A model generated the notes under the pieces. The model worked only from the letters and a program-made list of their open reading frames with translations, was not told the origin of the DNA and searched no databases. 64,000 nt of DNA from Candidatus Binatia bacterium (GTDB lineage Bacteria > Desulfobacterota > Binatia > UBA9968 > JAJDTQ01), in assembly GCA_963666515.2 (NCBI GenBank), contig OY762897.2:160001-224000 (forward strand). Reading direction: 5' to 3'. Every line of letters begins with the position of its first letter. Positions within the stretch are counted from its first letter, which is position 1. Positions 1,229 through 17,078 of this stretch are shown here, piece after piece. A program made the position numbers and the translations under genes.

Positions 1229-2695
1229 TCAAACCCGCCTGCCTGATTCAGTAACCGTCGAAGCCGCCTCCAGGTACTCTTCCTCGGCGGCGCGGAGGCG
1301 TTCGGCAATTTCTGGACTGCTCTTGCGGCCGGTCCACTGTTCTCTTGCTTGCGCCACCCTTTCCGCTAACGCCGCGGCTTGGCGGTCCAGCGCGGCCTCG
1401 TCGATGTGCGGGCTTACGCCGTCTTGTAAGACGACCTCGCCGCTCACCAGCACAGTATCGACGCTACGCCCGTTCTCCGAGTAGACAAGGCTCTGCACGA
1501 GGTCCGCGGCCGGCCACATCCGTGTGCCGGGTTTCAGGACGCAGATGTCGGCCAGATGGCCCGGAGCAATCCTGCCGGTTCGCAGCCCCAATGCCTTGGC
1601 GCCGCCGGTGGTGGCCATGGCAAGGCTTTCCGCCGCACTGATCCAGGCGTTGAAGTCCGGCTCGCTCGGGCGCCGCATGAGCGCCGCCATCTTCATCTGA
1701 TCGAACACGGAGTAGCCGTCGCTGGTGTCGCCGCCGTCGGAGCCCAGGGCCACGGTGATGCCGCGGTCCAGCATCTCGCGGATTCGGGCGATGCCGCTCC
1801 CGAGCTTGGCGTTGCTGCACGGGTTGTGAACCACCGCCGGCTGCCTGTCCTTGAGGACATCGAGCTCCCGGTCGGTGAGGTGCACCGCGTGGGCAAGGGA
1901 GGTCCCGGGCCGGAGCAGACCGAGCCGTGACGCCCGCTCCACCGTGGTTTCGCCGGTGACGGTGCGCTGCGTGGCTTCGACCCGAGTTTCCAGGAAATGG
2001 GTGTGCATGAGCAACTCCCTGTCCTCGGCCATGGCCAGACACCGGCTCAGGAAGTCGTCGGTGCAGGTGTGCGGCGAACTGGGCGCGACCACGCCCTGGA
2101 CGTTCGCCGGTCCGCCGGCGATCAAGTCCAGGGCCTGGGTCAGCCGATCCAACTCTTCAAGGGCGGCGGCGGACGCCTCATGATCAGGCACCACGCGCCG
2201 CCAGCCCGCGTCGGCCACCGATGGTGCGATGAAGGTACGGATGCCGATGCGCTCGGCCGCGTCGATGCACGCGCGGATATCCTCCAGGTCGATGGCGCCG
2301 CGCCGCGAGAGGTGGTGCAGCACCGTGGTGGTGCCGTGCTTGAGGTTCTCCAGCAGCGCGATGTGGTTGGCCGCCAGCAAATCGTCGTAGCCCGGTTCCA
2401 GGATGTCCTCGATGCCGCGCCTCTCCGGCAGCCACACCTCGAAGGGCACCCGGTCCCGCAAGCTCCGCTGCAAGGCTTCGGTGTGATGGCAGTGGGTGTT
2501 CACCAGGCCCGGTATCACGACCTTGTCGCGCGCATCGATGATGAGTGCTTCAGCCGAAATCTCCAGGGGCTGGCCCGGCAGGGGCTCGACGCTCTCGATC
2601 AGCTCTCCGCGGATCCGGATCAAACGGTCCCGGAGCACGGGCTCGAAGGCCGCGCCCACCAGCGTTCCCGCCAGGATGACCTTGTCGTCGTTCAT
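1229..2695 (-). CDS. metal-dependent amidohydrolase/deaminase (MTA/SAH deaminase, AtzA/AtzB-like family)
   Basis: PGLVNTHCH, HTHFLET, AHAVH and GSDG motifs. Confidence 0.85.
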   Translation of the reverse strand: MNDDKVILAGTLVGAAFEPVLRDRLIRIRGELIESVEPLPGQPLEISAEALIIDARDKVVIPGLVNTHCHHTEALQRSLRDRVPFEVWLPERRGIEDILEPGYDDLLAANHIALLENLKHGTTTVLHHLSRRGAIDLEDIRACIDAAERIGIRTFIAPSVADAGWRRVVPDHEASAAALEELDRLTQALDLIAGGPANVQGVVAPSSPHTCTDDFLSRCLAMAEDRELLMHTHFLETRVEATQRTVTGETTVERASRLGLLRPGTSLAHAVHLTDRELDVLKDRQPAVVHNPCSNAKLGSGIARIREMLDRGITVALGSDGGDTSDGYSVFDQMKMAALMRRPSEPDFNAWISAAESLAMATTGGAKALGLRTGRIAPGHLADICVLKPGTRMWPAADLVQSLVYSENGRSVDTVLVSGEVVLQDGVSPHIDEAALDRQAAALAERVAQAREQWTGRKSSPEIAERLRAAEEEYLEAASTVTESGRRV

Positions 2696-2771
2696 GGGTT
2701 CTTCTCCGGTGTGGTGGACGGGGACGGTCGCGGCGTCGGCGCGAACCCGCGGCCCCTGATGCCGTGCTCCC

Positions 2772-4082
2772 TCACAGCATGTTCGGCAGCCACAACGCGA
2801 TGCCCGGAAACGCGATCAGCAGGACCAGCACCACCAGGTCGCAGGCCAGGAAGGGCAGGGCGGAGACGTAGACGTCGCGCATGGTGGTGTCGGGCGGCGC
2901 CGCGGCCTTGACGGCAAAGAGGCTCGTGCCGAAGGGCGGGGAGGTCAGCGCCATCTCGGCGTTGAGGAGCATCAGCAGCCCGAACCACACGGGGTCGTAG
3001 CCCAGCGCGATCACCACCGGCAGGAAGATCGGGATGGTGACCATGAAGATGGTCACCACTTCCATGATCATGCCCAGTATGAGCACCACGATCATCATGC
3101 CGATGATGATCAGGATGGGCGCCACGTCGAGGCCGGCGACGAAGCCGCTGATTCCCCGGGTGATGCCGGCGAAGGCCATGATCTGGCTGAAGGTGGCCGA
3201 GGAGGCGAAGATCATCAGGATCATGGTGGAGACCCGTACGGTGCCGCGCAGCGACACCAGCACGAGGTTCCAGTCGAGCTTGCCGTAGACCCCGGCCAGG
3301 ATGAACGCGCCGAGGGCGCCAGTGACCGCGGACTGGGACGGCGTCGCCACCCCGAGGAAGATGAGGCCCAAGGTGAGGAAGACGATCAGCCCCAGGGGCA
3401 CCACGTACACCAGGGTTTCGTACACGCGCCGCGCCAAGGGCGGCCGCTCCACCGCGTACGCGGGAGCGAGGTCCGTCTGGATGGCCGCGCGGGTGACGAT
3501 GTAGATCATGTAGAGGGCGGCGAGCATGAGCCCGGGGACGGCCCCGCCGATGAGGATCTTGGCTACGGATATCTTGGCGATGGCCGCCAGGATGATGGCG
3601 AGCCCGCTGGGCGGGATCATCATGGCGAGTCCGCCGCCGCCGAGGATGGGACCCAGGCTCATGGGTTTCTTGTACCCCTGCTTCTCCATCTCGGGGGTAA
3701 GCACGGTGGCCATGACCGTGGAGCTGGCCAGGGACGAGCCGCTCATGGTGGCGAACAGGGTGGCGAAGGCGATTCCCAGGATCGACAGCCGTCCGGGTAT
3801 GCTGCCGAGCCAGTCGCCCAGCACCCGGAGCATGGTGTTGCCCATGCCGGAGTGGAAGATCACCATGCCCATGAGCGTGAATTCCACGATGGCCAGCAGC
3901 GTGAAGGTGGACAGCGCGGTCTGCATGTTGAGCACCACCAGCTCCATGCCCGGGCCGCCGCCCCAAAGGGTCAGCGCCCCGCCGGCGGTCACCAGCATGA
4001 AGACGAAGGCGATGGGCAGGCCGGTCATCAGCAGCACGACGATGACCGAGAAGAAGGTCAGCAGCAGGAGCGGCCAATCCAT
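2772..4082 (-). CDS. dctM: TRAP transporter large permease
   Basis: Highly hydrophobic; GSSLAS, MIPPS, ATPSQSA, DPVWFG, TSPPFG. Confidence 0.92.
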   Translation of the reverse strand: MDWPLLLLTFFSVIVVLLMTGLPIAFVFMLVTAGGALTLWGGGPGMELVVLNMQTALSTFTLLAIVEFTLMGMVIFHSGMGNTMLRVLGDWLGSIPGRLSILGIAFATLFATMSGSSLASSTVMATVLTPEMEKQGYKKPMSLGPILGGGGLAMMIPPSGLAIILAAIAKISVAKILIGGAVPGLMLAALYMIYIVTRAAIQTDLAPAYAVERPPLARRVYETLVYVVPLGLIVFLTLGLIFLGVATPSQSAVTGALGAFILAGVYGKLDWNLVLVSLRGTVRVSTMILMIFASSATFSQIMAFAGITRGISGFVAGLDVAPILIIIGMMIVVLILGMIMEVVTIFMVTIPIFLPVVIALGYDPVWFGLLMLLNAEMALTSPPFGTSLFAVKAAAPPDTTMRDVYVSALPFLACDLVVLVLLIAFPGIALWLPNML

Positions 4083-4115
4083 GGCGTTAAGGGTTCCAGG
4101 CGGGAGACCGGGCGC

Positions 4116-4646
4116 TCATCTCCGGTCCTCGGATGTTGCCTTGGCGTCTTGCCAGCGCCGGTAGTAGCCGCAGGTCCTACGCATGAACTGGATGCACAGC
4201 GAGGCCGCGCCGACGGGGATGGGGATCAGGAGCGGATACAGTGGCGGCTTGAGGGGACTCTCGTACATCTTCGTGCCGGCCATGTACTCCATGATGGTGG
4301 TGGTGGTGGCGTAGTAGGCCAGCACCCCGGTCACCAGCACCCCGACGGCAGAGGTCATCACCCCCAGGAACGCTTGGCTCCTGGGGCCCAGCACTTCCAC
4401 GACCACCTCCACCTTGACGTGGCCGTCCTCCCGCAACAGCCATGCCGCGCCGAAGAAGGCCAGGTAGAGGAGGCAGTACTCGGCGATCTCGATGGCCCAG
4501 CCCTGAGCCGAGGCAAAGAACTGCCGGCTTGCGATGTCGGAAAGGGTGAGCAGGGAGGCCAGGACCACCGCCACCGCGGAGATCAGCATGGAGACGTCCA
4601 GGAAACGGTCCCAGGCCGCCCCGAGTTTCGTAAGGAATACCTTCAA
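4116..4646 (-). CDS. dctQ: TRAP transporter small permease
   Basis: About 4 TM segments; W..EIAEY and GHVKVE; lies between dctP and dctM. Confidence 0.88.
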   Translation of the reverse strand: MKVFLTKLGAAWDRFLDVSMLISAVAVVLASLLTLSDIASRQFFASAQGWAIEIAEYCLLYLAFFGAAWLLREDGHVKVEVVVEVLGPRSQAFLGVMTSAVGVLVTGVLAYYATTTTIMEYMAGTKMYESPLKPPLYPLLIPIPVGAASLCIQFMRRTCGYYRRWQDAKATSEDRR

Positions 4647-4653
4647 CGCCGGG

Positions 4654-5631
4654 TCACCGGCTCATCATGGGTCGCATCTTGTCAACGAGCTCCTTGCCGA
4701 CGCTCTTCTCGACCCGCGCCCAGGACTTCGTCATGACGTCGTTGAAGAAGCCGTCGTTGACGTCCTTGGGCCAGTCGATGCGCACCATGCCGTTCTTCTT
4801 GGCGACCTGCCAGGCCGCGTCGAACTCCTTTTTCTTGAGGGCGACGAGGCCCTTCTCGGTCTCCGCCGCGGCATCGACCAGGGCTTGCTGCAGGTCGGCG
4901 GGCAGGCTGTTGAACTTCTTGAGGTTGACGCAAAGCACCGTGTTCTGTGCCGTGAAGAAGCCGGGGCCCACCCAGTACTTGAGCACTTCATAGAGCTTCC
5001 CGTCCACCACGGTCGCCATGGGCGCCGGTCTCACGTCGATCAGGCCCCGTTGAAGGGCCGAATAGACTTCCGGACTCGCAACCCGTACCTTGCGCCCGCC
5101 GGCCCGTTCGATGATCGGCTCGTAGATCCCGGAGGTCCGGAATCCCAATCCCTTGAGATCCTCCGGCTTCTCCGCCTTCTTGGTGCTGACGAGCACGTAA
5201 GGCGTGGCCGTCGAGGTCCGTCCCAGGTAGCGGAACCCGTTCTTCGCGAACTCCGCCACGAGAAAGTCGTAGAGTCCGCTCTTCCGCTCCTCCGCCGGGG
5301 TGAGCTGGGAGAGGTGTATCACCTGCGCCGCCTTGACGTGGAGCACGTAGGCCCACGCCACGCTCATGTCGAGCACGCCCTTCTGGACCGCGGCGGGCTG
5401 CTTCCTGCCCGGCGTGATCTCCGGTCCGCCGATCCAGTCGATCTTGAGCTTGCCCTTGGACTTCTCTGCCACCAGCTTGATGAACGTGGGAATGGCAGAC
5501 AGGGTGACCGCCGTCTTGGGGTCATAGGTGGCGAGCTTCAACGTGGTTTCAGCCGCGGCAGGATTCCAGCCAGAGAATGCCAGCACTACGGTCAGGATCA
5601 GGCCCGGTACGAAACCCTTTGCATGCTTCAT
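4654..5631 (-). CDS. dctP: TRAP solute-binding protein
   Basis: Signal peptide, DLKGLGFR, EVYSALQRGLID. Confidence 0.9.
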   Translation of the reverse strand: MKHAKGFVPGLILTVVLAFSGWNPAAAETTLKLATYDPKTAVTLSAIPTFIKLVAEKSKGKLKIDWIGGPEITPGRKQPAAVQKGVLDMSVAWAYVLHVKAAQVIHLSQLTPAEERKSGLYDFLVAEFAKNGFRYLGRTSTATPYVLVSTKKAEKPEDLKGLGFRTSGIYEPIIERAGGRKVRVASPEVYSALQRGLIDVRPAPMATVVDGKLYEVLKYWVGPGFFTAQNTVLCVNLKKFNSLPADLQQALVDAAAETEKGLVALKKKEFDAAWQVAKKNGMVRIDWPKDVNDGFFNDVMTKSWARVEKSVGKELVDKMRPMMSR

Positions 5632-5688
5632 GGCGATACCTCCTCGATACGTCCTTGAAGATTCGTTGGGCGCCCGGAAAACGGCCCG

Positions 5689-5718
5689 ACGTTACTCGCA
5701 ACGCCGAAAGCTTGTCAA
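5689..5718 (-). promoter_or_regulatory. sigma70-type promoter of dctPQM operon 1
   Basis: TTGACA-N18-TAACGT on the minus strand. Confidence 0.5.
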
Positions 5719-5738
5719 GCAGGGTTTCCTGTCGCTGA

Positions 5739-6878
5739 CTACCCGCTGAACTCGAGAACGTCGAGCCCGCACAGCCGGTCCAGCAGGTACAGCCGGCCAT
5801 TGGACCGGTCGAGAAAAATGTCGTTGCTCTGGACGATGGACTCCCCCTGGCCGGGCTCGGGCATGTAGTAACCGATCTCCCGCGGGCTCCAGGGATCGCT
5901 GATGTCCACGGCCCGGAGTCCCCCCGCGAACCAGGTGACGAAGATGGTGTTGCCCTGGACCTGTTCCTGGGGCTGATGGGAGCCGAACCATTCGTCGGGA
6001 TTGAACGGCTCGTCGTTGGGCACCCGGAAGGTGGCGATGGGCACGGGTTGGGTCTCCTCGGTGATGTCGACGATCCACATGAAGGCGTTGGGCGCCGGCG
6101 TCAGCCGGTCCACCACCTCCTCGTCTGTGACCACCAGCAGTCTCCGGCCCTGGATGGTCTGCGGGATCGGCAGCGCGGTGTGGGTGGGGCAGGGGTAGGG
6201 CGGGCTCCAGTCGAGGCCGCCGACCCTTTGCGGGCGGGCCATGTCCGATATGTCGAGGATGACGAAGCCGCCGTGCCAGTAGCTGGTGTACAGCCGGTCG
6301 CCGAGCCGGAGCGGATGGTGGCAGCGGTGCCGGACGCCCTTCCACGTCGGCGTTTCACCGCCCGCGGTCCACTGCCCGGGCATCCACCAGCGCCCCACCT
6401 CCTCGGGCCGGGTGGGGTCCTTCAGGTCCAGGATCATCATGATGTTGCCGACGTAGCCCTCCACCTGGGGCGAGAAGTAGGCGTAGTCGCCGTCGAAGTC
6501 GAAGCGGTGGACGCCGGTGCCCCCGGCCCGGTAGAAGCCGATCTCGCGCGGGCGGGCCTTGTCGGCGACGTCGTAGATCCTGAGCCCGCCCTGAAAGCCG
6601 TTCTTCGCCACGCCGCCGTAGCGTTCGTTGTTGACCAGCATGACGTCGCCGTGGACCCGGACCTTGTGCGAGTGGGTGCCTTCGGGGACCTCGACGTGGG
6701 AGACCACCTTGAGATTGTGCGGGTCGGAAACGTCCACGATGGTCGTGCCGTGGGGCGGTTCGATGTGTCCGACGTAGGCGTAGTCCCCCTGCACCACCAC
6801 CTGGCCCCCGCCCGGGACGTCGATGTGCCCCAGTTGCCTGAAGCCCTTGCTGCTGCCGTAGGGTTCGCGTTGCGTCAT
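5739..6878 (-). CDS. LVIVD-repeat beta-propeller protein
   Basis: Repeated IVDVSDP, IYDVAD, ILDLKDP, ILDISD, IVDITE, AVDISDP blades; no signal peptide. Confidence 0.85.
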   Translation of the reverse strand: MTQREPYGSSKGFRQLGHIDVPGGGQVVVQGDYAYVGHIEPPHGTTIVDVSDPHNLKVVSHVEVPEGTHSHKVRVHGDVMLVNNERYGGVAKNGFQGGLRIYDVADKARPREIGFYRAGGTGVHRFDFDGDYAYFSPQVEGYVGNIMMILDLKDPTRPEEVGRWWMPGQWTAGGETPTWKGVRHRCHHPLRLGDRLYTSYWHGGFVILDISDMARPQRVGGLDWSPPYPCPTHTALPIPQTIQGRRLLVVTDEEVVDRLTPAPNAFMWIVDITEETQPVPIATFRVPNDEPFNPDEWFGSHQPQEQVQGNTIFVTWFAGGLRAVDISDPWSPREIGYYMPEPGQGESIVQSNDIFLDRSNGRLYLLDRLCGLDVLEFSG

Positions 6879-6918
6879 GACGAGCCTCCGTTGGGTGTAT
6901 GCGATGCGTGTAATGACG

Positions 6919-8022
6919 TCAGGCCTTGCGCGCCAGCGCGGCCACCACGCCGCCGCTGGCCGGGCCCTGGTGCTCGGCGCCTGCGGAGACGTAGCACATG
7001 GTGTCGCCGGTGACCGAGGCCACCACCGCGTTGACCGCGCCGCGGATGTGCCGCGTGTAGTTGATGTCCGAGTCCTCGAACACGACGTGCCGCCGCCCGC
7101 GGGTGTTGCCCGACGGATCCGGCTCGCACTTGACGAACATGTTCACCAGCCGCTCCTGGCCGGGCTCCGACAACTCGCCGTTGACCTCCAGGCCCACCTT
7201 GCGGAGCGCTTCCCGCACCGCCGCCGCGTCGATGGCGTCCTTCATCACCGCGTGGTCGATGATGAGGCCGCTGGTGGAGCGCGGCGAGTTGCCGAGGACG
7301 ATGACCTCGCAGTTCATCAGCTCGATGCCGGAAGAAGCCGAGGCCACGTTGGAGAAGACGGCGAGGTCCTGCCCGATGACCGCTTCGCTGACGTTCCCCT
7401 CCGCGATTTCGCCGGTGGCCATGCCGATGCCGAGGGCGGCCACGCTCCGGGCGTAGGACATGGACTTGTAGGTGTCGGTGGTGACGACGCGCGCGTTGCG
7501 CGACCAGGCGTCCTTGATCCGCTCGGTGGTGAGGGCGCCGGTCTTGATCTGGACGAAGTGGATGTCCGAGGGATCGTCGATGCCGGCGTCCTCGATGGCC
7601 GCCTTCACGCCCTCGGCCGCGGACTGCACGTGGGTCATGGTGCCGAACTCCTCGGGCGTCATGTCGCGGGTGTAGGCGGTGCCCACGGTAAAGCCCTTGC
7701 CCTTGCCGCCGCCGTCGCCGTCCGGATCCTTCACGAAGATGGTGGCATGGGGGCTCATCAACCCCTCGGTGCCGCCCGACCAGATGATCGGCACCTTCCG
7801 GGCGATGTCGTCCATGGTGAGGCCCGACTTCTCCGCGATCAGCAACTGGAAGCACTGGGTAGCCAGTGCCCGGGTGTAGTCGTTGACGCCGCCGTTGCCC
7901 TCGGTCTTGCCCAGGATCGCCGCCACGTGCTCGGCCTTGAACGCCCCCGAGTCCAGCAGCCTCCGCCCTTCCGACACGTCGTCGGGTGCGCCCATACCCA
8001 CCTTGTACGCGCTTACGTTCAT
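6919..8022 (-). CDS. atzD: cyclic amide ring-opening amidohydrolase (cyanuric acid amidohydrolase/barbiturase family)
   Basis: GKTEGNGGVNDYTR, SGGTEG, QIKT, SASSG, INYTRHIR, SAGAEHQGP; RBS AAGGAG; ATGA overlap with the upstream gene. Confidence 0.88.
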   Translation of the reverse strand: MNVSAYKVGMGAPDDVSEGRRLLDSGAFKAEHVAAILGKTEGNGGVNDYTRALATQCFQLLIAEKSGLTMDDIARKVPIIWSGGTEGLMSPHATIFVKDPDGDGGGKGKGFTVGTAYTRDMTPEEFGTMTHVQSAAEGVKAAIEDAGIDDPSDIHFVQIKTGALTTERIKDAWSRNARVVTTDTYKSMSYARSVAALGIGMATGEIAEGNVSEAVIGQDLAVFSNVASASSGIELMNCEVIVLGNSPRSTSGLIIDHAVMKDAIDAAAVREALRKVGLEVNGELSEPGQERLVNMFVKCEPDPSGNTRGRRHVVFEDSDINYTRHIRGAVNAVVASVTGDTMCYVSAGAEHQGPASGGVVAALARKA

Positions 8023-9464
8023 GAGGGGACTCCTTGTCGGGTTGTGAGTTCGCCGTCTTCCCGAAGCCGTCGAGCCAATGCGGCGACGGCCTGTTCCATG
8101 CACGCCAGCGGCGCCCGGGTGACCCCGGCGCCGATCTGGCCGATGCCCGCTTCACGGTGGGCGATGCCGGTATTGATGACCGGCGCGATGCCGGTGTCGA
8201 CGCACTTGCGCACGTCGATGCCCGCGGGTGTGCCCTGGAAATCCAGGATCGGCAAGGTCCACGCCGGGTTCCTTCCCAAGGTGATGTGGCCCATCTCGGC
8301 GGTGGCGCCGAGGGCGTCGGCCGCGGCGCCGCCCACGAACCTGACGATGGCCGGGGAAGCGGCCATGGCGAAGCCGCCGATGCCGGCGGTCTCGGTGATG
8401 GCGCTGTCGCCCAGGTCCGGGGCGGCATCCTCCACGTCGTATCCGGCGAAGAAGAGTCCCCGGACCCGCGGCGCCGGGGTGCTGAACCAGGCGTCGCCGG
8501 TGCCGCTGACGCGGATGCCGAACTCCACCCCGTTGCGCGCCATTGCGGTGACCATGCTGCTGCCGGGAACGCCGTGGGCCGCTTCCAGCATGGCCTTGCA
8601 GGCGGCCATGGAGAGGTTGAGGAAGAAGTGGTCGTTGCCGGTGATGAAGCGCACGGTTTCGGCGATGCGGGCCTGCGGAGCGGCGCTCTCCAGCAGGGCC
8701 GGCAGCAGCGCCCGCAGCAGCAGGGAAGAGGCGGCGACGTTGCGGTTGTGGACCTCGTCGCCCATGTGCAGCGCCTGGGCCATGAGGGGCTTGAGCGGCA
8801 GTCCTTCCCGGTGCTCCAGCGCGGCCTTCAGGGTGGGCGCCAGCACGCCCTCCATCCACCGGAGCCGCTCCAGCACCTCGGGCGCATAGGCCCCCATGCG
8901 CAGCACCTTCCCCAGCCCCTCATTGAGGTTGCAGTAGGCGGTGCGGCCGTGCTCGGCATCGCGCACGATCCACACCGGCATGGACGGGCTCGTGACCCCT
9001 GCCATGGGCCCGACGCAGGCGTGATGGTGGTTGGGTTCGAAGATGATCCCGCCGCCGGCCGCCAGCGCCCGGGCGCCGTCCGGGTCGCCGGCCCATCCCT
9101 CCAGCAGGATCGCTCCGGTGACTGCCCCCTGCATGGGCCCGCACATGCGCTCCCACGTCACCGGCGGGCCGGCGTGGAGGATCATGCGCTCGCCCATTCC
9201 GGGGATGTCGTCTCCGGCCGTGCCGATCCCGTCCAGCACCGGCTCGGCGTTCAGATATGCGGCGAACGCGCGGCCGTTGGCCTGCTCCACCGCCGCAAGG
9301 TTCACGATGGACGCGAGCGCCGCGCCGATTTCCCTGTTCCCGCCGGCGGGCGGACGCCAGTCGGTCCGTTGCACCTCGCCGCCAGCGGTGTCGATGGAGT
9401 CCGCAAAGCTCTCGAGGCCTACGTTGACTACCCGCAACTCTTCGCGGAACAAACGCTCAATCAT
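8019..9464 (-). CDS. DUF1116 (YlbE/YahG, AllG-like) protein
   Basis: LHAGPP, GPMAG, NEGLGKVLRMG, LHMGDEVHNRN, DLGDSAITET, INTGIAHREAGIGQIGAG; N-terminal VVNVGL..F...W.PPAGG segment. Confidence 0.88.
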   Translation of the reverse strand: MIERLFREELRVVNVGLESFADSIDTAGGEVQRTDWRPPAGGNREIGAALASIVNLAAVEQANGRAFAAYLNAEPVLDGIGTAGDDIPGMGERMILHAGPPVTWERMCGPMQGAVTGAILLEGWAGDPDGARALAAGGGIIFEPNHHHACVGPMAGVTSPSMPVWIVRDAEHGRTAYCNLNEGLGKVLRMGAYAPEVLERLRWMEGVLAPTLKAALEHREGLPLKPLMAQALHMGDEVHNRNVAASSLLLRALLPALLESAAPQARIAETVRFITGNDHFFLNLSMAACKAMLEAAHGVPGSSMVTAMARNGVEFGIRVSGTGDAWFSTPAPRVRGLFFAGYDVEDAAPDLGDSAITETAGIGGFAMAASPAIVRFVGGAAADALGATAEMGHITLGRNPAWTLPILDFQGTPAGIDVRKCVDTGIAPVINTGIAHREAGIGQIGAGVTRAPLACMEQAVAALARRLREDGELTTRQGVPS

Positions 9465-9511
9465 GGCTTCCCTGTGATTCCCCGCCCCGGCCGATGCACC
9501 CCTCTCCACCT

Positions 9512-9539
9512 CTGGATTCCGGCTTTCGCCAGAATGACG
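9512..9539 (-). repeat. CGTC-tagged REP-like palindrome
   Basis: Minus strand reads CGTCATTCTGGCGAAAGCCGGAATCCAG; same scaffold as the units at 60465-60594. Confidence 0.6.
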
Positions 9540-9587
9540 ATTTCGAGCCGTCGATGTCCTCACCTGATGAATCAGACACGATACTGC

Positions 9588-11150
9588 CTATTCGTGCCGG
9601 TCGTCGCACGCAAGCACCAACGCCATCCGGACGGCGTCGGCGTTGCTGCGGCCCAGGATCACGCCTGCGTCCTCCAACTTGCGTTCCTGTTGCGGCGCGT
9701 TTTGCGGATCGTCGGGGGTTCCGCACACGGACGCCACGAACTCGAGCCGTCTGCCGGCCCGCTCCGCTGCCTCCCCGGCTTTGCGGATGACCGGCGCCAG
9801 CGCCCCCGCGGGATCGTCATGGGCGCCGTAACCCAGCACCACGTCCAGGAGGATCACGGCCACCTCCGGGTCGGCGGCTTCCCGCAGGATGCGCTCGCCG
9901 CGCAGCCGCGGATCGATCATCGGATGCGGGCGTCCCCGCGTCAGCCGCGCGTCGCCCAGGTCCACCACGGCGTTTCCCTGACTCTCCCAGATATCACTCA
10001 GGAACGGCGGCATGGAAGTGTTGCTGTAGACAAGTCCTACCGCCTCACGCATGAGCAACACCGCCTCGGCGGCCAGCGTGCCGCCGCTGTAGAGGCCGCG
10101 GATGAACCGTTGGCTGGGCGCTTTCGGGCGGCCTGCGTCCGCGAGCCTGTCGTCCGGTTCGGTCCGGTGTTCGGGCGTGGTGTCGCGCGAGAACGCAACG
10201 CCTTGGGACAGGGCCACCGCCGCGCGGGCGGCCTCGTCCAAGGTCCGCGCCACGACGAGACCCGGCGCCGGTTGGACGTCCGGGGCCGCCCCGACAAAGT
10301 TCACCACCACGGGCTTGCCGGCGCGCCGGGCCCGTTCGAGGACCCGCTTGGCCACCTCCGGGTCCGGGGGCTTGGAGACCAGCGCGATGACGCGCGTCGC
10401 CGGGTCCTGGGCCAGGGCGTCCAACGCCTGCAAGGTGGAGAGGCCGCCGACGCCCCGTGACAGGTCCCGTCCGCCGGTCCCGATGACCTGGGACAGACCG
10501 CCGCCGTACTGATGGATGAGCGTGGTCACTTCCTGAAGGCCGGTGCCGGCGGCGCCGATGCAGCCGATGTCGCCGCGCCGCACCGCGTTGGCGAAGCCAA
10601 GCGGTATACCGTTGATGATGGCCGTGCCGCAGTCGGGACCCATCACCAGCAGACCGTTGGCGTTGGCATACTGCTTGAGCGCCACCTCGTCCGCCTCGGA
10701 TACGCCGGCGCTGAACAGCATGACGTGAAGCCCCAGGCGCAGGGCCTTCAGGGCCTCGGCAGCCGCGTAGTCACCCGGCACCGAGATGAGCGCCAGGTTG
10801 GCGGGCGTCTCCTCAAGGCTCATGGCCAGGCTGCGGGGCAGGGCGGCATTCGTGCTCGCGGCAGCGCGGGATGCCGGCGTGTCCCGACTCAACTCCTCCT
10901 CAACCGCGGCGAAGACCTGCTCGATGATCTCCCTGTCGTCGCCCCGAACCACCACCAGCATGTCGTTGGCCCCGGCATCGGCTTCACCGGCGAAGAGACC
11001 CGCGTCGCGCAACAGCGCGCGGTTGCCGTCGGTCGCCATCACCACGGCCGCGGCGTCCACTCCCGAGGTCTCGGCGGCCCGCGCGGAGAGCTGCATGAGC
11101 GACAGGGAGTCGTGGTAGCAATTGGGGATGACTCTCGTTAGCGTGATCAT
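9588..11150 (-). CDS. fdrA: FdrA (YahF/AllF-like) succinyl-CoA-synthetase-fold protein
   Basis: YHDSLSLM, ISVPGDYA, MGPDCGT, GTGLQE, IGTGGRD, SKPP, GLYSGGTL, GRPHPMIDP, LDVVLGYG. Confidence 0.9.
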   Translation of the reverse strand: MITLTRVIPNCYHDSLSLMQLSARAAETSGVDAAAVVMATDGNRALLRDAGLFAGEADAGANDMLVVVRGDDREIIEQVFAAVEEELSRDTPASRAAASTNAALPRSLAMSLEETPANLALISVPGDYAAAEALKALRLGLHVMLFSAGVSEADEVALKQYANANGLLVMGPDCGTAIINGIPLGFANAVRRGDIGCIGAAGTGLQEVTTLIHQYGGGLSQVIGTGGRDLSRGVGGLSTLQALDALAQDPATRVIALVSKPPDPEVAKRVLERARRAGKPVVVNFVGAAPDVQPAPGLVVARTLDEAARAAVALSQGVAFSRDTTPEHRTEPDDRLADAGRPKAPSQRFIRGLYSGGTLAAEAVLLMREAVGLVYSNTSMPPFLSDIWESQGNAVVDLGDARLTRGRPHPMIDPRLRGERILREAADPEVAVILLDVVLGYGAHDDPAGALAPVIRKAGEAAERAGRRLEFVASVCGTPDDPQNAPQQERKLEDAGVILGRSNADAVRMALVLACDDRHE

Positions 11151-11221
11151 GGTTCGGATCAGCGAGGGAGGGCGTTCTCCGACTTGGGATGGACGCCGGC
11201 CTCTTCCGTAGTCCCGCGGGG

Positions 11222-11250
11222 ACTCTACTACGAAACCCGTGGAGGGTCCA
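11222..11250 (-). promoter_or_regulatory. possible promoter of the fdrA-atzD operon with an overlapping palindrome
   Basis: TGGACC-N17-TAGAGT on the minus strand; AGTCCC-GCG-GGGACT dyad at 11210-11224. Confidence 0.35.
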
Positions 11251-11317
11251 TTTCGGTTGGATTTTGGTCGGATATCGCCGAAACTTGCCCTGCAATCCCA
11301 AACCACCGGGAGCAACT

Positions 11318-12550
11318 ATGAGCGAACCGTTCGATCTCTTGATCCGGAAGGCGCGGCTGCGGCGCCGGCCGGAAGCGTTGTACGACATCGCCGTGCGCGC
11401 GGGACGAATCGAGGCCATCGACGAATCGTCGGACCGGTCGGCCGCGGTCGTGCTGGACGCGGCCGGGGGTCTCGTCACCGAGCCCTTCGTCAATCCCCAC
11501 CTGCATCTCGACAAGGTCTACACCCTTCAGCGGCTGGACGAGGAGTCGTCCCTGCGCGCCTATCACGGCGAGGGTATGGGCAGCGCCATGAAAGCCATCG
11601 AGGCGGCGTCGCGGGTCAAGGAATCGTACAGCCAGGACTGGATCGTGGAAAACGCCAGACGGGCGCTCCGCGCCGCGGCGGTGCACGGCAACACCCACAT
11701 CCGGGCGTTCGCCGACGTGGATACCAAGGCGCGTCTGGAGGGCGTCAAGGCGCTGCTCCAGGTGAGGGAGGAGTTCCGCGGCATCGTGGAGTTGCAGGTG
11801 GTGGCGTTTCCGCAGGACGGGGTTGTGCGGGAGCCCGGCGCCGCCGAACTGGTGCGCGAGGCCGTGGCGCTGGGCGTGGACGTGGTGGGCGGCATTCCGT
11901 GGATCGAGTACACTGACGCCGCCGCGCGTGAGCACGTGCGCCAAATGTTCGAGATCGCCGTGGCCAACGACAAGCCCGTTTCCATGCTGGTGGACGACGC
12001 CGGCGACCCGGGCCTGCGGACGTTGGAGATGATGGCGGTCCACGCCATCGAGAACGGTTGGCAGGGACGGATCCTGGCGCATCACGCGCGCGCCATGGCG
12101 CTCTACCCCGAGCCCTATTTCCAGAAAGTGGCGGCGCTCCTGCGGCAGGCCGGCATGCCCGTGGTCACCGACCCTCACACCGGGCCGCTCCACGCCCGCG
12201 TCCGTGACCTCCAGGCCGCCGGCGTCCGTGTCTGTCTCGGGCAGGACGACATATCCGACGCCTACTACCCCTTCGGCCGCAACAACATGTTGGAAGTCGC
12301 GTTCCTGGCCTCGCACCTGCTGTGGATGACCACCGAGGACGACATGGAACGCCTCTACGACATGATCACCGTGGACGCCGCCCGCGCCATGGGCCTCGAC
12401 GACCTGCGCCTGGAGGTAGGCGCCCCCGCGGACATGGTGGTGCTGGGGGCCCCGTCCGTGCTGGAAGCCCTGCGCGACCACCGGGCGCCGGTGCACGTCA
12501 TCCGCGGCGGGAAGGTGGTGGACATCGAGATGCTGAGTGATCCCGGATAG
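11318..12550 (+). CDS. cytosine deaminase (CodA)/AtzC/YahJ-like amidohydrolase
   Basis: PHLHLDK, QVVAFPQDG, VGGIP, GQDD and YYPFG motifs. Confidence 0.85.
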   Translation: MSEPFDLLIRKARLRRRPEALYDIAVRAGRIEAIDESSDRSAAVVLDAAGGLVTEPFVNPHLHLDKVYTLQRLDEESSLRAYHGEGMGSAMKAIEAASRVKESYSQDWIVENARRALRAAAVHGNTHIRAFADVDTKARLEGVKALLQVREEFRGIVELQVVAFPQDGVVREPGAAELVREAVALGVDVVGGIPWIEYTDAAAREHVRQMFEIAVANDKPVSMLVDDAGDPGLRTLEMMAVHAIENGWQGRILAHHARAMALYPEPYFQKVAALLRQAGMPVVTDPHTGPLHARVRDLQAAGVRVCLGQDDISDAYYPFGRNNMLEVAFLASHLLWMTTEDDMERLYDMITVDAARAMGLDDLRLEVGAPADMVVLGAPSVLEALRDHRAPVHVIRGGKVVDIEMLSDPG

Positions 12551-12659
12551 CTTGATCCTTTAGGGGTGCGAGTGAGAAGGGAGCCGGTGCCCCAGGCGGG
12601 CAGCGACGTGTTCTGACGCCAGTTGACAACAGATCGGGGTTCGGTCTATCCCGATTGCC

Positions 12660-12932
12660 ATGCAAGTCTTCGCCGTCTTCAATATCTCCCACCGGGACAT
12701 TGTTCTGGAGCGCCTCAAGGAGCACTATCCCCACCAGCACACCGAAACCAACCGCGAGGCTTTCTTCGTCGCCACAGTCGGGGAGACTTCGCAGCAGGTG
12801 GGGGAGAAACTCGGCTTCGGTGCGGACAACCTGTCGTCCGGGATTGTCGTGCCGGTGACGGCTTACTGGGGACGCGCCAATCCGAATCTGTGGGAATGGA
12901 TACAGGCGAAGATGGACGCCAATGGCAAGTAA
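12660..12932 (+). CDS. hypothetical protein (90 aa)
   Basis: Protein-like composition with a C-terminal YWG..W.W segment; overlaps the next ORF by 11 nt. Confidence 0.6.
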   Translation: MQVFAVFNISHRDIVLERLKEHYPHQHTETNREAFFVATVGETSQQVGEKLGFGADNLSSGIVVPVTAYWGRANPNLWEWIQAKMDANGK

Positions 12933-13194
12933 CGGCGATACCAACCCCGAAGCCCAAAGAGAGATTCCGCCAGATCGCCCCACGGGAGAACTGGGCTGGA
13001 TCAGAGAAGCTCTCAACAGGCTGGACGCGCGGTTTGATAAACTTGATACAAGACTGGATGGCCTTGAGGAGCGACTACGCAAGGTGGAGAACAGGATATA
13101 CTGGATCGGCGGAATCATCACCGCCCTGGTGCTCTTGGTCGGCGCCCTCCAGATACTGATGCGGGTAGCTGACATATCGATCACCCTCAAATAG
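12922..13194 (+). CDS. small coiled-coil protein with C-terminal TM anchor (XhlA/DUF1640-like)
   Basis: Heptad run LNRLDARFDKLDTRLDGLEERLRKVENR followed by hydrophobic IYWIGGIITALVLLVG. Confidence 0.65.
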   Translation: MASNGDTNPEAQREIPPDRPTGELGWIREALNRLDARFDKLDTRLDGLEERLRKVENRIYWIGGIITALVLLVGALQILMRVADISITLK

Positions 13195-13405
13195 GTGAAC
13201 CCGCTACGTCCCTTGAGGCTTCGGGAAGCATCCGACTTCTCACGTCCGGCCCCCGCCAGCACCCGCTCCGGCAGGTCGTCCACTGCCTTCATCGGATACG
13301 TCTCCGCCTTGTCCTTCAGGAGCAGCAGTTCGCCAACGAATCAGCCCGCCTTCCAGTTCGCCGGAATGCTTGACACCCATCACCCCGCAGTCCTATGTAG
13401 TCCCC

Positions 13406-14482
13406 ATGCCGGTCATCGACGCAGACGCCCACGTGGACGAGACCGAGGATACCTGGGGTTACATCGACGAGGCATACAAGCGGTACACCCCGGTCACGGT
13501 GATGCAGGATCCCGCCAGCTCGGGCGGCACGCAGCCGCGGGGATACAACCGCTACTGGTGCGTGGACGGCCGTTTTCTGGTGCGGCGCATCCGGGACGAC
13601 AAGCGCACCGAGACGACGGTGGAGACGCGCGAGCTGCTGGACGTGCCGGCGCGGCTGCGCCACATGGACGAGCTGGGCATCGACGTGCAGGTTTGCTACC
13701 CGACCACGTTCCTGCTGCGCTGGAGTCCGCGGGACGACATCGAGCACGCGCTGCGCAGATCCTACAACCGCTGGATGGCGGACCGGTGGAAGCTGAGCGA
13801 CAACCGCCTGCGCTGGGTCTGCCTCCTGCCCATGGGCGACATGGACGAGGCCGTGAAGGAGATGCGCTTCGCCCGCGAAAACGGCGCCTGCGGGTGGATG
13901 AAGAAGGGGATCGAGTGCGGCAACAGGCGCGCGGGCGACCCCTACTTCTTTCCGCTCTACCAGGAGTCGGAGGCTCTGGACATGGCCGTGTGCGTCCACA
14001 CCGGCACGGGCGACCCGGCCCTCACCGACGCCGACGCCACGATCCTGAGCCTCCACAACATCACCGCTCCGGTCATCGACGCCTTCACCTCCCTGGTCAT
14101 GGCGGAGGTGCCGGCGAAGTTTCCCAGGTTGAGGGTGGGTTTCATCGAGGCCATGGCCTCTTGGGTGCCGTTCGCGCTGGCGGAGTTGCGGGCGCGTCAC
14201 GAGCGTTCCCGCTGGTTGTTTTCGTTCGACCTGACCAGGAACCTGCTCAAGGAGTCGCGGTTCTACGTGGCCTGCCAGACGGTGGAGGACCTGCCGTACA
14301 TCATCCAGCACTGCGGCGAGGACAACCTCGTCGCCGGAACCGACTACAGCCACGCGGACCAGTCCGCGGAGATCCGCACCCTGAGCGTGCTGCGGGAGAT
14401 GGGGGAGGAAGGCGTCATCACGGGCCGTCAGGCGGAAAAGATCCTCAACGACAACCCGGCGGCGTTGTACGGCATTTCGTGA
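13406..14482 (+). CDS. amidohydrolase_2 family (ACMSD/LigJ-like TIM barrel)
   Basis: IDADAH, RLRHMDELGID, VHTG, FIEA, GTDYSH, KILNDNP. Confidence 0.87.
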   Translation: MPVIDADAHVDETEDTWGYIDEAYKRYTPVTVMQDPASSGGTQPRGYNRYWCVDGRFLVRRIRDDKRTETTVETRELLDVPARLRHMDELGIDVQVCYPTTFLLRWSPRDDIEHALRRSYNRWMADRWKLSDNRLRWVCLLPMGDMDEAVKEMRFARENGACGWMKKGIECGNRRAGDPYFFPLYQESEALDMAVCVHTGTGDPALTDADATILSLHNITAPVIDAFTSLVMAEVPAKFPRLRVGFIEAMASWVPFALAELRARHERSRWLFSFDLTRNLLKESRFYVACQTVEDLPYIIQHCGEDNLVAGTDYSHADQSAEIRTLSVLREMGEEGVITGRQAEKILNDNPAALYGIS

Positions 14483-14556
14483 GCGGCCGGCGGGTTGCCC
14501 GGACGCTTCGGGCGGACGCGGCGCCATGATCCAGGTTCACACAGGAGGTCCAAGAC

Positions 14557-15357
14557 GTGCCTTTTCTGAAACGCGATGACGTAGAACTCCATTACGAGGT
14601 GACCGGCGAGGGCCGCCCTTTCGTCTTCATCAGCGAGACCGCGTGCGACGGCGAGGTGTGGAAGATGTACCCGGTGCCGGAGTTCTCCAGAGACCACATG
14701 TGCATCACCTCCGACTACCGCGGCACCGGGCAGTCCGGGAAGCCGTCCATCCCCTATACCACCGACATGTTCGCGGCGGACATCGCCGCCATCATGGACC
14801 ACGTGGGGGCCAGTGACGCCGTCGTCTGCGGGCATTCCATGGGCGGCCGCGTGGCGCAGCTCCTGGCCCTGGACCACCCCGGGAAGGTGAGCAAGCTGAT
14901 CCTGGCCTCCAGCGGCGCCTCCTTCCCCAACACCAAGGGCATCCCCCTCAAGCTGGCCAAGGAGATGGTGGAGATGGGCTACGAGCGCTACGTGAGCGAC
15001 AGCTCCGTCGCCGTGGGCTTCACCGACGCCTTCGCCAAGGAACACCCGGAGCGCGTCCAGGCCTACCTGGACGTCCGCATGGCCAACCCGTGCCCGCCGG
15101 AGTTCTACCTGCGCCACGTCATCGCCCGCCAGGAGCACGACACCAGCCACCGGCTCAAGGACATCACCGTGCCGACCCTGATCCTGGTGGGCGAGGACGA
15201 CCGTAGCGTCACCAGCGACATGGACCACCGGACCTCCGCGGACATCCTGGCCAACGGAATCCCCGGCGCCCGCTTGGTGATCCTTCCGGGCGAGCGGCAC
15301 AGCTACTTCTTTGCCAACCCGGAAGCGTCCTTCAAGGCCATCCGGGACTTCCTGTAA
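14557..15357 (+). CDS. alpha/beta fold hydrolase
   Basis: DYRGTG, GHSMGG nucleophile elbow, GEDD and late His; GTG start with RBS AGGAGG. Confidence 0.88.
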   Translation: MPFLKRDDVELHYEVTGEGRPFVFISETACDGEVWKMYPVPEFSRDHMCITSDYRGTGQSGKPSIPYTTDMFAADIAAIMDHVGASDAVVCGHSMGGRVAQLLALDHPGKVSKLILASSGASFPNTKGIPLKLAKEMVEMGYERYVSDSSVAVGFTDAFAKEHPERVQAYLDVRMANPCPPEFYLRHVIARQEHDTSHRLKDITVPTLILVGEDDRSVTSDMDHRTSADILANGIPGARLVILPGERHSYFFANPEASFKAIRDFL

Positions 15358-15395
15358 AGCGAATCGGTTCTCACCATCATCCGGAGGAGGCATCC

Positions 15396-15917
15396 ATGGC
15401 GGATTTCACCGTAGCGCAGTTCAGGGACGTATCCGGCGGCCTGCAGGAGGGCCAGTTTGCCATCGGCGAACGGAGCAAGGCCGCGAGCCTGGAGGACCTG
15501 GACCCTACCTACAAGCAGTTGCTGGACATGCCGATAACGGTCACGCTGGGTCTCACGGGTCCGGACGGGCGGGTGAATCTCACGCCCATGTGGTTCGACT
15601 ACGATGGCGACAAGGTGCTGGTGAACACGGCCTCGCACCGGGCCAAGTGCGGCTGGATCCGCAAGAACCCGCGCCTCACCATGCTGCTGGTGAATCCCCA
15701 GAACCCGTACCACTGGATGAGCATCAAGGCCACGGTGGTGAACGAGATTCGGGAGGGCGAGCCCGGCGGCGAAAGGGCCGCCGAGCACATCGATAAGATG
15801 TGGACCAAGTACACCGGCCAGGAGCCGCCCTACGGCCTCAGGGATCCCATCATCGACGAGAAGCGCGTGTTGTTCGAGTGCCGGGTGGACCGGGTGGCCA
15901 CGTTCGGAACACCGTGA
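15396..15917 (+). CDS. pyridoxamine 5'-phosphate oxidase-like (PPOX class, possibly F420-dependent) protein
   Basis: DGRVNLTPMWF, VNT...R.K...I.KNP, NPYHW. Confidence 0.8.
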   Translation: MADFTVAQFRDVSGGLQEGQFAIGERSKAASLEDLDPTYKQLLDMPITVTLGLTGPDGRVNLTPMWFDYDGDKVLVNTASHRAKCGWIRKNPRLTMLLVNPQNPYHWMSIKATVVNEIREGEPGGERAAEHIDKMWTKYTGQEPPYGLRDPIIDEKRVLFECRVDRVATFGTP

Positions 15918-16004
15918 TCGTCGCGGTTTGAAAGAAGCAAGACCGATGGTCCCGGGCCCGACCCCATCGGGCCCACTCCACGAACCCGAAAGGAGCGTGT
16001 CACG

Positions 16005-17078
16005 ATGCATTTCACCGTAGTGCAAAAGAGATTGGCATGGGCCGTGGTGCTGGGCGGGCTGCTGGTGCTGACGACGCTGGCCGGGTCGGCGTCCGCGGCC
16101 GACAAGCCCTTCTACTCGGGCAAGACCATCAGGGTGATCGTGCCCTTCAGTCCCGGCGGGGGCACGGACAACTACGCGCGTTTCGCCTCCAGGCATTGGG
16201 TCAAGTACATTCCGGGCAATCCCAAAATCCTGGTGCAGAACATGCCGGGCGGCGGCGGCGCGCTGACCTTCGGCTACCTCTACTCCAAGGCGTCCAGGGA
16301 TGGCCTGACGCTTGGGGTGGCCTCCGAAGGGATTCCGGTCCGCCGCCTCTTGCGGCGCCCCGGCCACACGTACAAGTTCACCGAGATGTCGCTCATCGCC
16401 TCGGCCCCCAGCTCCACCACCCACTTCGCCGGCAAGAGTCTGGACATCAAGGAACTCAAGGACCTCAAGAAGACCAGCGGAAAGATCGTCGCCGGAGACA
16501 CGCAGAAGGGATCCACCGTGGCCATCGTCTCCGGCCTGATCTTCGAGCTTCTGGGGCTCGAGTACCGTCAGGTCTATGGCTACAGCAGCTACGGCGAGGC
16601 GCGGCTGGCGCTGCTCAAGGGCGAGGTCAACATGACTGGCGGGGACGCGTTCAACTACGCGCTGGTGGTGAAGCCGCTGGAGGAGAAGGGTGAGGTCACC
16701 ATCCTCTTTCAGTCCGGGCTCCTGGACAGCAAGGGGAACGTAGCTCGGCATCCCGCGATGCCGCACCTGCGCACCGTCCGGGAAGGCTTCGTGGAGTTGT
16801 TCGGCAAGGAGCCGTCCGGGACCGTCTGGGAAGCCATCAAGGGGATCATCGCCGTGAATACCTTGGGCAAGTCCGTCTGGGCTCCTCCCGGCGTGCCCGA
16901 GGCCCGGATACGCGACCTTGAGGACGGGTTCCGCAAGATGGTCGCCGACCCGGCGTTCCAGGCGGATGCGGTGAAGGTGATGGGCGGCAAGAACGACGCC
17001 GTCATCGGCAAGGACGCTCAAGCGGCGCTGAAGCAGTTCTTCGGCCTGCCGGAGGACGTGGTCAAGCTGTATCGTTGA
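16005..17078 (+). CDS. tctC: TTT (Bug/TctC) solute-binding protein
   Basis: Signal peptide, IVPFSPGGGTD, VQNMPGGGG, DGLT. Confidence 0.85.
   Translation: MHFTVVQKRLAWAVVLGGLLVLTTLAGSASAADKPFYSGKTIRVIVPFSPGGGTDNYARFASRHWVKYIPGNPKILVQNMPGGGGALTFGYLYSKASRDGLTLGVASEGIPVRRLLRRPGHTYKFTEMSLIASAPSSTTHFAGKSLDIKELKDLKKTSGKIVAGDTQKGSTVAIVSGLIFELLGLEYRQVYGYSSYGEARLALLKGEVNMTGGDAFNYALVVKPLEEKGEVTILFQSGLLDSKGNVARHPAMPHLRTVREGFVELFGKEPSGTVWEAIKGIIAVNTLGKSVWAPPGVPEARIRDLEDGFRKMVADPAFQADAVKVMGGKNDAVIGKDAQAALKQFFGLPEDVVKLYR

Follow-up and report, generated by a model that had tools for sequence, protein, structure and literature searches.

Which enzyme takes over once an AtzD-type hydrolase has opened its ring? 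Cyanuric acid hydrolase, a member of this family, has been studied for the clean-up of herbicides and pool water, yet it is still a puzzle what the enzyme does in nature and why anaerobes have it. Ring opening alone frees no ammonia, and a downstream enzyme is therefore needed. The question is raised here by a locus of a Candidatus Binatia bacterium in which an atzD gene adjoins genes for an FdrA protein and a DUF1116 protein, the homologues of AllF and AllG of E. coli. The window, that is, the whole 64,000-nucleotide stretch analysed (G000:C1:160001-224000), belongs to a genome of 4.67 Mb in two contigs with a completeness of 98.35%. In E. coli, AllF, AllG and AllH are reported to constitute oxamate carbamoyltransferase, which converts oxalurate and phosphate to oxamate and carbamoyl phosphate; all three proteins are needed, and the operon includes the carbamate kinase AllK (Kim & Kim, 2024, PMC11326118). 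A first-pass annotation of the window had proposed that the ring-opened ureide is processed by carbamoyl transfer, or by a CoA-linked step, instead of hydrolysis. We lean, with modest confidence, towards reading the region as one catabolic unit for a cyanuric-acid-type N-heterocycle, in which the ring-opened acyl-urea would be cleaved with phosphate to carbamoyl phosphate. The linkage of AtzD to AllF/AllG is conserved well beyond chance, yet it is not universal.

The ring opener and its AllF/AllG-type neighbours

Genes were called by open reading frame (ORF) prediction guided by GC content at third codon positions and by Pfam and NCBIfam profile searches. Eight genes lie co-directionally on the minus strand in the order fdrA, allG, atzD, a gene for an LVIVD propeller, dctP, dctQ, dctM and a gene for a TRZ/ATZ-type amidohydrolase, with spacings of 123, -4, 40, 107, 7, 33 and 76 nt, and a CodA/AtzC-like gene diverges from fdrA. 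All of these genes had been named, on the correct strands, in the first-pass annotation, which had also noted the ATGA overlap; it lies at 8019-8022, where the stop codon of allG overlaps the start codon of atzD and couples the two genes translationally.

The atzD gene (6919-8022, minus strand) encodes 367 residues and is single-copy in the genome; the E. coli control has no AtzD. The protein matches PF09663 over its full length (447 bits, cut-off 25, profile positions 3-358), TIGR02714 (427.2 bits, cut-off 153.1) and the equivalog NF052395, 'cyanuric acid amidohydrolase' (460.8 bits, cut-off 360). Compared with solved structures, it scores 376 bits against the Moorella cyanuric acid hydrolase 6bum, 362 bits against TrzD (5t13), 304 bits against AtzD and 285 bits against barbiturase. 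The active-site residues reported for cyanuric acid hydrolase, in Azorhizobium numbering, are S79/K40, S226/K156, S333/K285, R52, R188, R314 and E230 (PMC4051656). Judged by this account, the three Ser-Lys dyads, the three active-site arginines and the glutamate beside the central lysine are kept in the window protein, the residues having been matched by motif in HMMER alignments to 6bum, 5t13, 4bvq and 5hwe and not by superposition. The translation contains the motifs GKTEG, NDYTR, WSGGTEG, QIKTG, SYAR, ASSGIE, FVKCE, YTRH and VSAGAEHQGP, among which the previously noted NDYTR, SGGTEG and AEHQGP can be recognized. The position of Arg188 is described as Gln in the barbiturase subgroup (PMC4051656); in our alignments this column reads SYAR in the window protein, YSR in four cyanuric acid hydrolases and LSN, that is, Asn and not Gln, in the barbiturase 5hwe. 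The window AtzD shares 71% identity with Rokubacteria proteins but only 44-52% with the ten remaining AtzDs of the comparison. The AtzDs of clusters that also bear AllFGHK lie near proven hydrolases (515 bits between the L020 protein and the Moorella enzyme, 495 bits between the protein of G302 and TrzD), and this similarity supports cyanuric acid as the probable substrate there.

The fdrA gene (9588-11150, minus strand; start corrected to the ATG at 11150 from 11315) encodes an AllF/YahF-like subunit of 520 residues with CoA_binding and Ligase_CoA domains (PF02629, PF00549), a match to NF004760 of 514.9 bits (cut-off 433) and weak matches to the succinyl-CoA synthetase alpha subunit. The DUF1116 protein, an AllG/YahG-like subunit of 481 residues (8019-9464, minus strand), is the sole AllG of the genome and matches PF06545 with 334.8 bits (cut-off 27). 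Identity to E. coli AllF and AllG is 41% for FdrA and 51% for AllG. The E. coli comparator originally chosen, FdrA/YlbE, gives way by bit score to the pair YahF/YahG: FdrA reaches 395 bits with YahF against 313 bits with E. coli FdrA, and AllG reaches 445 bits with YahG against 401 bits with YlbE/AllG. Likewise, the AllK of an AtzD-linked cluster (L023) scores 226-258 bits to its Yah counterpart and 156 bits to E. coli AllK. In eight-row trees YahF groups with the AtzD-linked FdrAs of Bacillota (support 100/99), AllF and AllK are long outliers, and the window FdrA sits in an unresolved fork. We also considered whether the AtzD-linked AllGs form a subfamily apart from E. coli AllG; the identities do not support this, and the AllG tree is unresolved.

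A six-frame search of the genome, at its completeness of 98.35%, returned no match to AllH (DUF2877, PF11392), which was found in the E. coli control, and AllH was likewise not found in two complete genomes of the same genus (G308 and G321). The best genome-wide score for carbamate kinase (TIGR00746) is 23 bits against a cut-off of 358, so that the absence of both partners from the cluster, already remarked upon from the sequence, extends to the whole genome. The hydrolases of the canonical routes also stay below their curated cut-offs genome-wide: BiuH reaches 97 bits (cut-off 370), the allophanate hydrolase AtzF 241 bits (cut-off 511), AtzE 342.6 bits (cut-off 425.75) and urease 20 bits (cut-off 680). 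The genome gave no match to the ureidoglycolate dehydrogenase AllD (TIGR03175), and hence no internal source of oxalurate is evident.

Distribution of the linkage

The linkage was surveyed by scanning one genome per species, in a set biased towards relatives of the window AtzD; neighbouring genes were scored by tblastn, 96 ORFs from ten loci were scanned with Pfam and NCBIfam, and a second tblastn matrix was computed. An AtzD relative was located at 36 loci in five phyla, of which 29 have AllG and/or FdrA nearby, and the suspected association of AtzD with FdrA/DUF1116 is thus conserved. Both genes are present in 24 of the 36. AllG alone is present in five, four of which are cut by a contig end (L004, L012, L026 and L036); the fifth, L011, lost FdrA internally. 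At this last locus, which belongs to the window genus, allG stands beside the CodA-like gene with about 745 bp between them (~7805-8550) and without fdrA, a natural loss of one subunit. The seven loci with neither gene comprise three truncated contigs (L015, L019 and L027), two cyanobacterial loci (L028 and L032), one locus with AtzD beside AllH only (L033) and the Mariniplasma locus L034. AtzD, the transporter, the permease and the BiuH-like gene are all retained at L034, and an amidase occupies the position of the allHFGK genes of related loci, a pattern that fits the displacement of one function by another.

AtzD adjoins AllF/AllG in Binatia, in Rokubacteria/Methylomirabilota, in Acholeplasmataceae/Bacillota, in an alphaproteobacterium and in a Casimicrobiaceae genome; the ten-locus scan and the second matrix yield four architectures. 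In the Acholeplasmataceae, Bacilli and other Bacillota, a PucR gene is followed divergently by AtzD and a 433-aa transporter, frequently by a xanthine/uracil permease with a BiuH-like isochorismatase (278 bits, cut-off 370), and then by AllH-AllF-AllG-carbamate kinase (370 bits for the kinase, cut-off 358). The alphaproteobacterium and the Casimicrobiaceae genome have AllK-AllG-AllF divergent from transporter-AtzD, and in the latter the same contig carries AllH at a distance of 8 kb. Genome G302, from another family of the window's order, has TRAP (tripartite ATP-independent periplasmic) transporter genes divergent from allF-allG-atzD-allK-(CodA-like amidohydrolase)-allH, which places atzD inside a carbamoyltransferase operon. 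The single AllG of G422, G423 and G424 is in each case the AtzD-linked one.

The AtzD loci closest to that of the window come from metagenome-assembled genomes labelled Candidatus Binatia. Across 13 loci of the window genus, AllG is present in 13, the LVIVD gene in 12 and DctPQM in 11. The LVIVD propeller, which had been counted as part of the linked set, and the TRAP system of the window prove to be specific to this genus.

Five of five Rokubacteria/Methylomirabilota loci have the order AllF-AllG-CoxL-like molybdenum hydroxylase-AtzD, and G424 has no AllH. The hydroxylase gene between allG and atzD (L035, L014, L016, L036 and L037) encodes a CoxL-like large subunit (NF040766, 1067 bits); at L035 no gene for a medium or small hydroxylase subunit was seen nearby, and the genes that come after encode a methyltransferase and an EamA exporter. 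AllG reaches up to five matches per Rokubacteria genome, far above AtzD, which suggests a diversified FdrA/DUF1116 family in this group. In one genome (G702) the AtzD next to AllG is split by one internal TGA.

Within the window's order, AtzD and AllG occur together in 17 of 123 genomes, always adjacent (at most 1.6 kb apart), the remaining 106 having neither; the 17 comprise 15 of the 28 genomes of the window genus and both genomes of a second genus. In the order of G422 (Acholeplasma-type), AtzD was found in four of 201 sampled genomes and AllG in six, including all four, on the same contig at a distance of 7-10 kb. A sample of 301 genomes from the phylum contains AtzD only in the window's own genome and is hence uninformative on linkage. 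We read these counts as a recurrent association and not as a statistic.

Proposed fate of the ring-opened product

The route that we propose would begin with the TRAP transporter, which would import the ring compound or an aminated precursor, and with the CodA/AtzC-like and TRZ/ATZ-like amidohydrolases, which would remove exocyclic amino groups to give a trione ring. Opening of this ring by AtzD would yield a linear acyl-urea, which for cyanuric acid is carboxybiuret. The YahF/YahG-type pair FdrA/DUF1116 would then use phosphate to cleave the terminal ureido group, either of this product or of biuret or allophanate formed by its breakdown, giving carbamoyl phosphate without hydrolysis. A carboxylate with an N-acyl urea at its end is common to oxalurate, carboxybiuret, allophanate and ureidomalonate. 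The carbamoyl-transfer reading, which rests on this chemical analogy and on gene context, is the most economical. In lineages with AllH and carbamate kinase, carbamoyl phosphate would yield ATP. Both are missing in the window genus, where the pathway would therefore scavenge nitrogen, carbamoyl phosphate entering arginine and pyrimidine synthesis. As to the point of entry, carboxybiuret is reported to decarboxylate spontaneously to biuret with a half-life of about 20 min (PMC7948467). The amidase that L034 has in place of allHFGK points towards the biuret/allophanate end of the pathway, and so does the reported position of biuH beside allFGHK in comammox bacteria and ammonia-oxidizing archaea that have no upstream allantoin genes (PMC12625717).

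The earlier idea of carbamoyl transfer in place of hydrolysis is thus supported in part, by the conserved linkage and by the lack of a canonical BiuH, AtzE, AtzF or urease above cut-off; the chemistry itself is hypothetical. The fuller proposal, that cyanuric acid and related ring ureides are broken down by phosphorolysis with a YahF/YahG-type carbamoyltransferase acting after AtzD, that ATP is formed where carbamate kinase is present and that the AllH-less form is a distinct enzyme, is put forward tentatively, as something possible that falls somewhat short of probable.

Several observations weigh against the carbamoyl-transfer reading. Oxalurate is the sole substrate with biochemical evidence, and the E. 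coli enzyme is reported to require AllH (PMC11326118), which was found neither in the window genome nor in the two complete genomes of its genus. L011 keeps AtzD and AllG after the loss of FdrA. The 13 amidase-signature paralogues of the genome could process carboxybiuret, biuret or allophanate. The window AtzD belongs to a divergent clade with some barbiturase-like motifs, so that cyanuric acid is not certain to be its substrate, and we are less sure of this substrate here than for the AtzDs of AllFGHK-bearing clusters. Related genomes are not independent, and the 17 of 17 co-occurrences in the window's order may represent only two or three events of gain or loss. The linkage, exact in that order, is loose in the Rokubacteria order of G424, where most AtzD genes lie away from AllG: AllG stands within 4 kb of AtzD in 10 of 51 AtzD genomes and within 30 kb in 15 of 51, counts that are lower bounds given that 27 AllG matches fall outside the listing and many contigs are short. 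Of the 151 genomes sampled in this order, 51 have AtzD and 121 have AllG; the totals include G656 and G707, which are unpublished and contribute none of the adjacent cases. AllG is present in 48 of the 51 genomes with AtzD and in 73 of the 100 without it, and it must therefore have other roles.

The position of atzD inside the allF-allG...allK...allH operon of G302, the ATGA overlap with allG in the window and a co-occurrence that is exact or one-sided in two orders are difficult to reconcile with the idea, which we regard as unlikely, that two separate salvage functions share one island. FdrA/AllG would then act on oxalurate or an imported ureide and AtzD on cyanuric acid, with its product passing to unlinked amidases, and the genes would travel together only since their substrates, purine oxidation products, occur together. 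Oxalurate is a carboxylate, the usual type of ligand for TRAP binding proteins, which speaks for this idea; the window AllG is as near to E. coli AllG, at 51% identity, as it is to other AtzD-linked AllGs, AllG is mostly apart from AtzD in the 121 Rokubacteria genomes that have it, and the 13 amidases could supply the hydrolysis. The absence of AllD or another evident oxalurate source from the genome argues the other way, as does that of a curated BiuH, AtzE or AtzF. The gene set allFGHK next to biuH was, in the account given in PMC12625717, taken by its authors as a separate oxalurate pathway, again in keeping with two functions.

It is also conceivable, with a probability that we put low, that the AtzD of the window genus and of Rokubacteria is no cyanuric acid hydrolase and has a different cyclic ureide as its substrate, perhaps barbiturate or a substituted triazinedione, and that FdrA/AllG acts on the matching product, for example ureidomalonate, which is the one-carbon homologue of oxalurate. 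The identity of this clade to the ten other AtzDs compared is only 44-52%, and the motifs VPIIWSGGT, GNGGVNDYTR and FVKCE are shared with barbiturase and not with the four aligned cyanuric acid hydrolases. The CoxL-like hydroxylase between allG and atzD in five of five Rokubacteria loci could make a trione from a dione, and AllH is missing in both lineages. On the other hand, the protein passes the NF052395 equivalog cut-off, scores higher against three cyanuric acid hydrolases than against barbiturase (362-376 versus 285 bits) and keeps the arginine at the position where the barbiturase subgroup is reported to have Gln (PMC4051656) and the solved barbiturase has Asn. That FdrA/DUF1116 is instead a CoA ligase or another acyl-CoA-forming enzyme acting on the ring-opened acid, as the CoA_binding and Ligase_CoA domains and the weak succinyl-CoA synthetase matches might suggest, seems highly improbable: the only characterized member of the family is, according to PMC11326118, a phosphorolytic carbamoyltransferase, and the clusters of Bacillota/Acholeplasma type, of proteobacteria and of G302 contain a carbamate kinase gene along with the module.

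If the carbamoyl-transfer reading is true, it would add to BiuH/AtzF and AtzEGH/AtzF a third downstream route, one able to conserve energy, and the clusters with carbamate kinase (Acholeplasma-type, Bacillota, Casimicrobiaceae and G302) would obtain ATP from cyanuric acid by substrate-level phosphorylation. The substrate range of the AllFGH family would be widened, the orphan yahEFGIJ genes of E. coli would be given a substrate class and the two-subunit, AllH-less form of the window genus and Rokubacteria would be a distinct enzyme. It would also indicate a way in which bacteria of sponges and soil obtain nitrogen from ring ureides. The locus is of relevance to s-triazine, ureide and carbamoyl phosphate metabolism, and would then provide a testable lead for the uncharacterized yahEFGIJ and for the large LVIVD propeller family.

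Accessory genes and related systems

The LVIVD protein (5739-6878, minus strand; 379 residues; PF08309, 70.7 bits) has 4455 homologues at E <= 1e-10, all unnamed or 'hypothetical', and is 59-82% identical to the others among 24 aligned sequences. Invariant residues include H38, H69, H71, H124, C186, H187, H188, H233 and H301, and no signal peptide is evident in the protein. An AlphaFold2 model (mean pLDDT confidence score 86.5) is a seven-bladed beta-propeller; Foldseek ranks the Sphingobium TCM1 phosphotriesterase 5hrm first (E = 1.8e-15, TM-score 0.71), followed by generic WD40 propellers. The protein is probably an accessory metalloenzyme of the version of the pathway found in the window genus. 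It was considered as a relative of the 433-445 aa AtzD neighbour of other phyla, and the two are unrelated, the latter being a membrane transporter with weak similarity to DcuC. A 61% identical paralogue (G000:C1:3535622-3536716, L060) lies in an unrelated catabolic neighbourhood with GrdB-like and glycine-reductase-B-like genes, a family III CoA-transferase, Amidohydro_2, an HMGL-like carboxylase and a cupin, and the family seems to serve several catabolic clusters.

Three adjacent minus-strand genes form a complete TRAP set: the solute-binding protein DctP (4654-5631; PF03480, 101.5 bits), the small permease DctQ (4116-4646; PF04290, 89 bits) and the large permease DctM (2772-4082; PF06808, 238.6 bits). 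Solved relatives of DctP are distant, the best being 4mnc with 100.9 bits. The TRAP system of G302 was rejected as an orthologue, the binding proteins not being detectably alike. The last gene of the cluster encodes a TRZ/ATZ-type amidohydrolase of 488 residues (Amidohydro_1, 1229-2695, minus strand; PF01979, 185.4 bits), a probable deaminase or dechlorinase-like enzyme, for which all NCBIfam matches are below cut-off and the solved relatives are methylthioadenosine/S-adenosylhomocysteine deaminase (140 bits), 8-oxoguanine deaminase (120 bits) and TrzN (108 bits). The divergent CodA/AtzC-like protein (11318-12550, plus strand, start corrected to the ATG at 11318; 410 residues; PF07969, 146.3 bits) is about equally near to E. 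coli cytosine deaminase (183 bits) and to AtzC (174 bits), and shares 35% identity with the amidohydrolase encoded within the allF-allG-atzD-allK operon of G302. The recurrence of a CodA/AtzC-like deaminase in three architectures fits the part of the first-pass annotation in which deaminases feed aminated rings into the pathway.

The 167-bp region between fdrA and the CodA-like gene (11151-11317) presumably holds the promoters of both, as read from the sequence; a scan of it found no sigma-70 consensus, and a scan of the cluster found no terminator-like sites. Within the fdrA-allG spacer (9465-9587), outside the pathway, lies a 30-nt palindromic repeat element (9509-9538, minus strand) that is single-copy within the window. 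The longer ORF of allG crosses this element, which makes the gene look 33 codons too long, and its likely start is the Met codon (ATG) at 9464. The bin containing the element has a metagenome contig depth of 24,448 in run X1 and 25,323 in run X5, against about 50-400 elsewhere (about 60 elsewhere in X1), and a related-strain contig runs from 9464 straight to 9617 with the element missing. The element has the look of a small, very abundant repeat that was inserted between fdrA and allG. A related-strain contig from run X5 joins 12527 to 13367, omitting 839 bp (12528-13366) between the CodA-like and Amidohydro_2 genes. In this stretch, which may be an insertion, no ORF matches Pfam, and the sole inverted repeat found is weak and 17 nt long. 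Beyond the CodA-like gene, Amidohydro_2, alpha/beta-hydrolase and TctC-TctA-TctB genes follow (13370-19132); the position of at least the first two is kept in L006, L008, L010, L011, L013 and L017, and that of the Tct genes in L006 and L011. On the other side, the window starts with a DUF4143 fragment (region 2-1157), and an NYN-domain ORF (513-1157) lies just upstream of the last gene of the cluster. The sequencing runs that contain parts of the stretch (X5, X11-X20, X22 and X23) are mostly labelled sponge metagenome; contigs of X1, X5 and X23 were aligned to the region, and we read no habitat from the runs with a small share. Contigs from an RNA library (run X23, 90-99% identity, 22 of 30 bins of the region) were set aside, such contigs showing neither transcription nor an operon transcript.

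We found no paper that links AtzD to the AllF/AllG module or proposes phosphorolysis of these ureides; earlier studies of AtzD contexts may have noted FdrA-type neighbours. Aukema 2020 and Seffernick 2012 are said to have analysed such gene contexts. The canonical cyanuric acid pathways, AtzD-BiuH-AtzF in Rhizobium and AtzD-AtzEG-AtzH-AtzF in Pseudomonas sp. ADP, share with the window an opener of the AtzD family and upstream AtzC-like and TRZ/ATZ-like amidohydrolases, but the window has AllF/AllG-type neighbours in place of the downstream hydrolases, which stay below cut-off genome-wide. The Moorella thermoacetica enzyme and TrzD, the best solved relatives of the window AtzD, are much closer to the AtzDs of L020 and G302, the window protein being more divergent. 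Barbiturase of the oxidative pyrimidine pathway shares the enzyme family, some AtzD motifs and, in ureidomalonate, a product homologous to oxalurate; it differs in its lower score and in the discriminating arginine, which the window AtzD retains. The nearest paper describes the biuH-allFGHK clusters of comammox Nitrospira and ammonia-oxidizing archaea, in which a gene for a ureide hydrolase from the cyanuric acid/triuret pathway stands beside AllFGHK; it reports no atzD in those genomes, and its authors read biuH and allFGHK as separate pathways (PMC12625717).

The two E. coli systems are the nearest comparators for the module itself. AllFGH (Kim & Kim, 2024, PMC11326118) shares the FdrA and DUF1116 homologues, to which the clusters of other phyla add DUF2877 and carbamate kinase. 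The window genome has no AllH, AllK or AllD and has atzD as the partner gene, and the gene boundaries differ, with F and G subunits of about 520 and 480 residues in the window and of 555 and 419 residues in E. coli. The yahE-yahF-yahG-yahI-yahJ cluster of E. coli K-12 (L062, 335925-342507), for the function of which a literature search at the level of its listings found no paper, encodes a DUF2877 protein, an FdrA-like protein, a DUF1116 protein, a carbamate-kinase-like protein and the amidohydrolase YahJ. The window lacks homologues of YahE (DUF2877) and YahI (carbamate-kinase-like), E. coli lacks AtzD, and YahJ is only 26% identical to the CodA-like protein; the subunit lengths agree (515 residues in YahF and 472 in YahG) and the bit scores are higher than for the All proteins. 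By bit score, the window module thus appears to resemble yahEFGIJ more than allFGHK, and the yah cluster corresponds to the AtzD-linked set minus AtzD.

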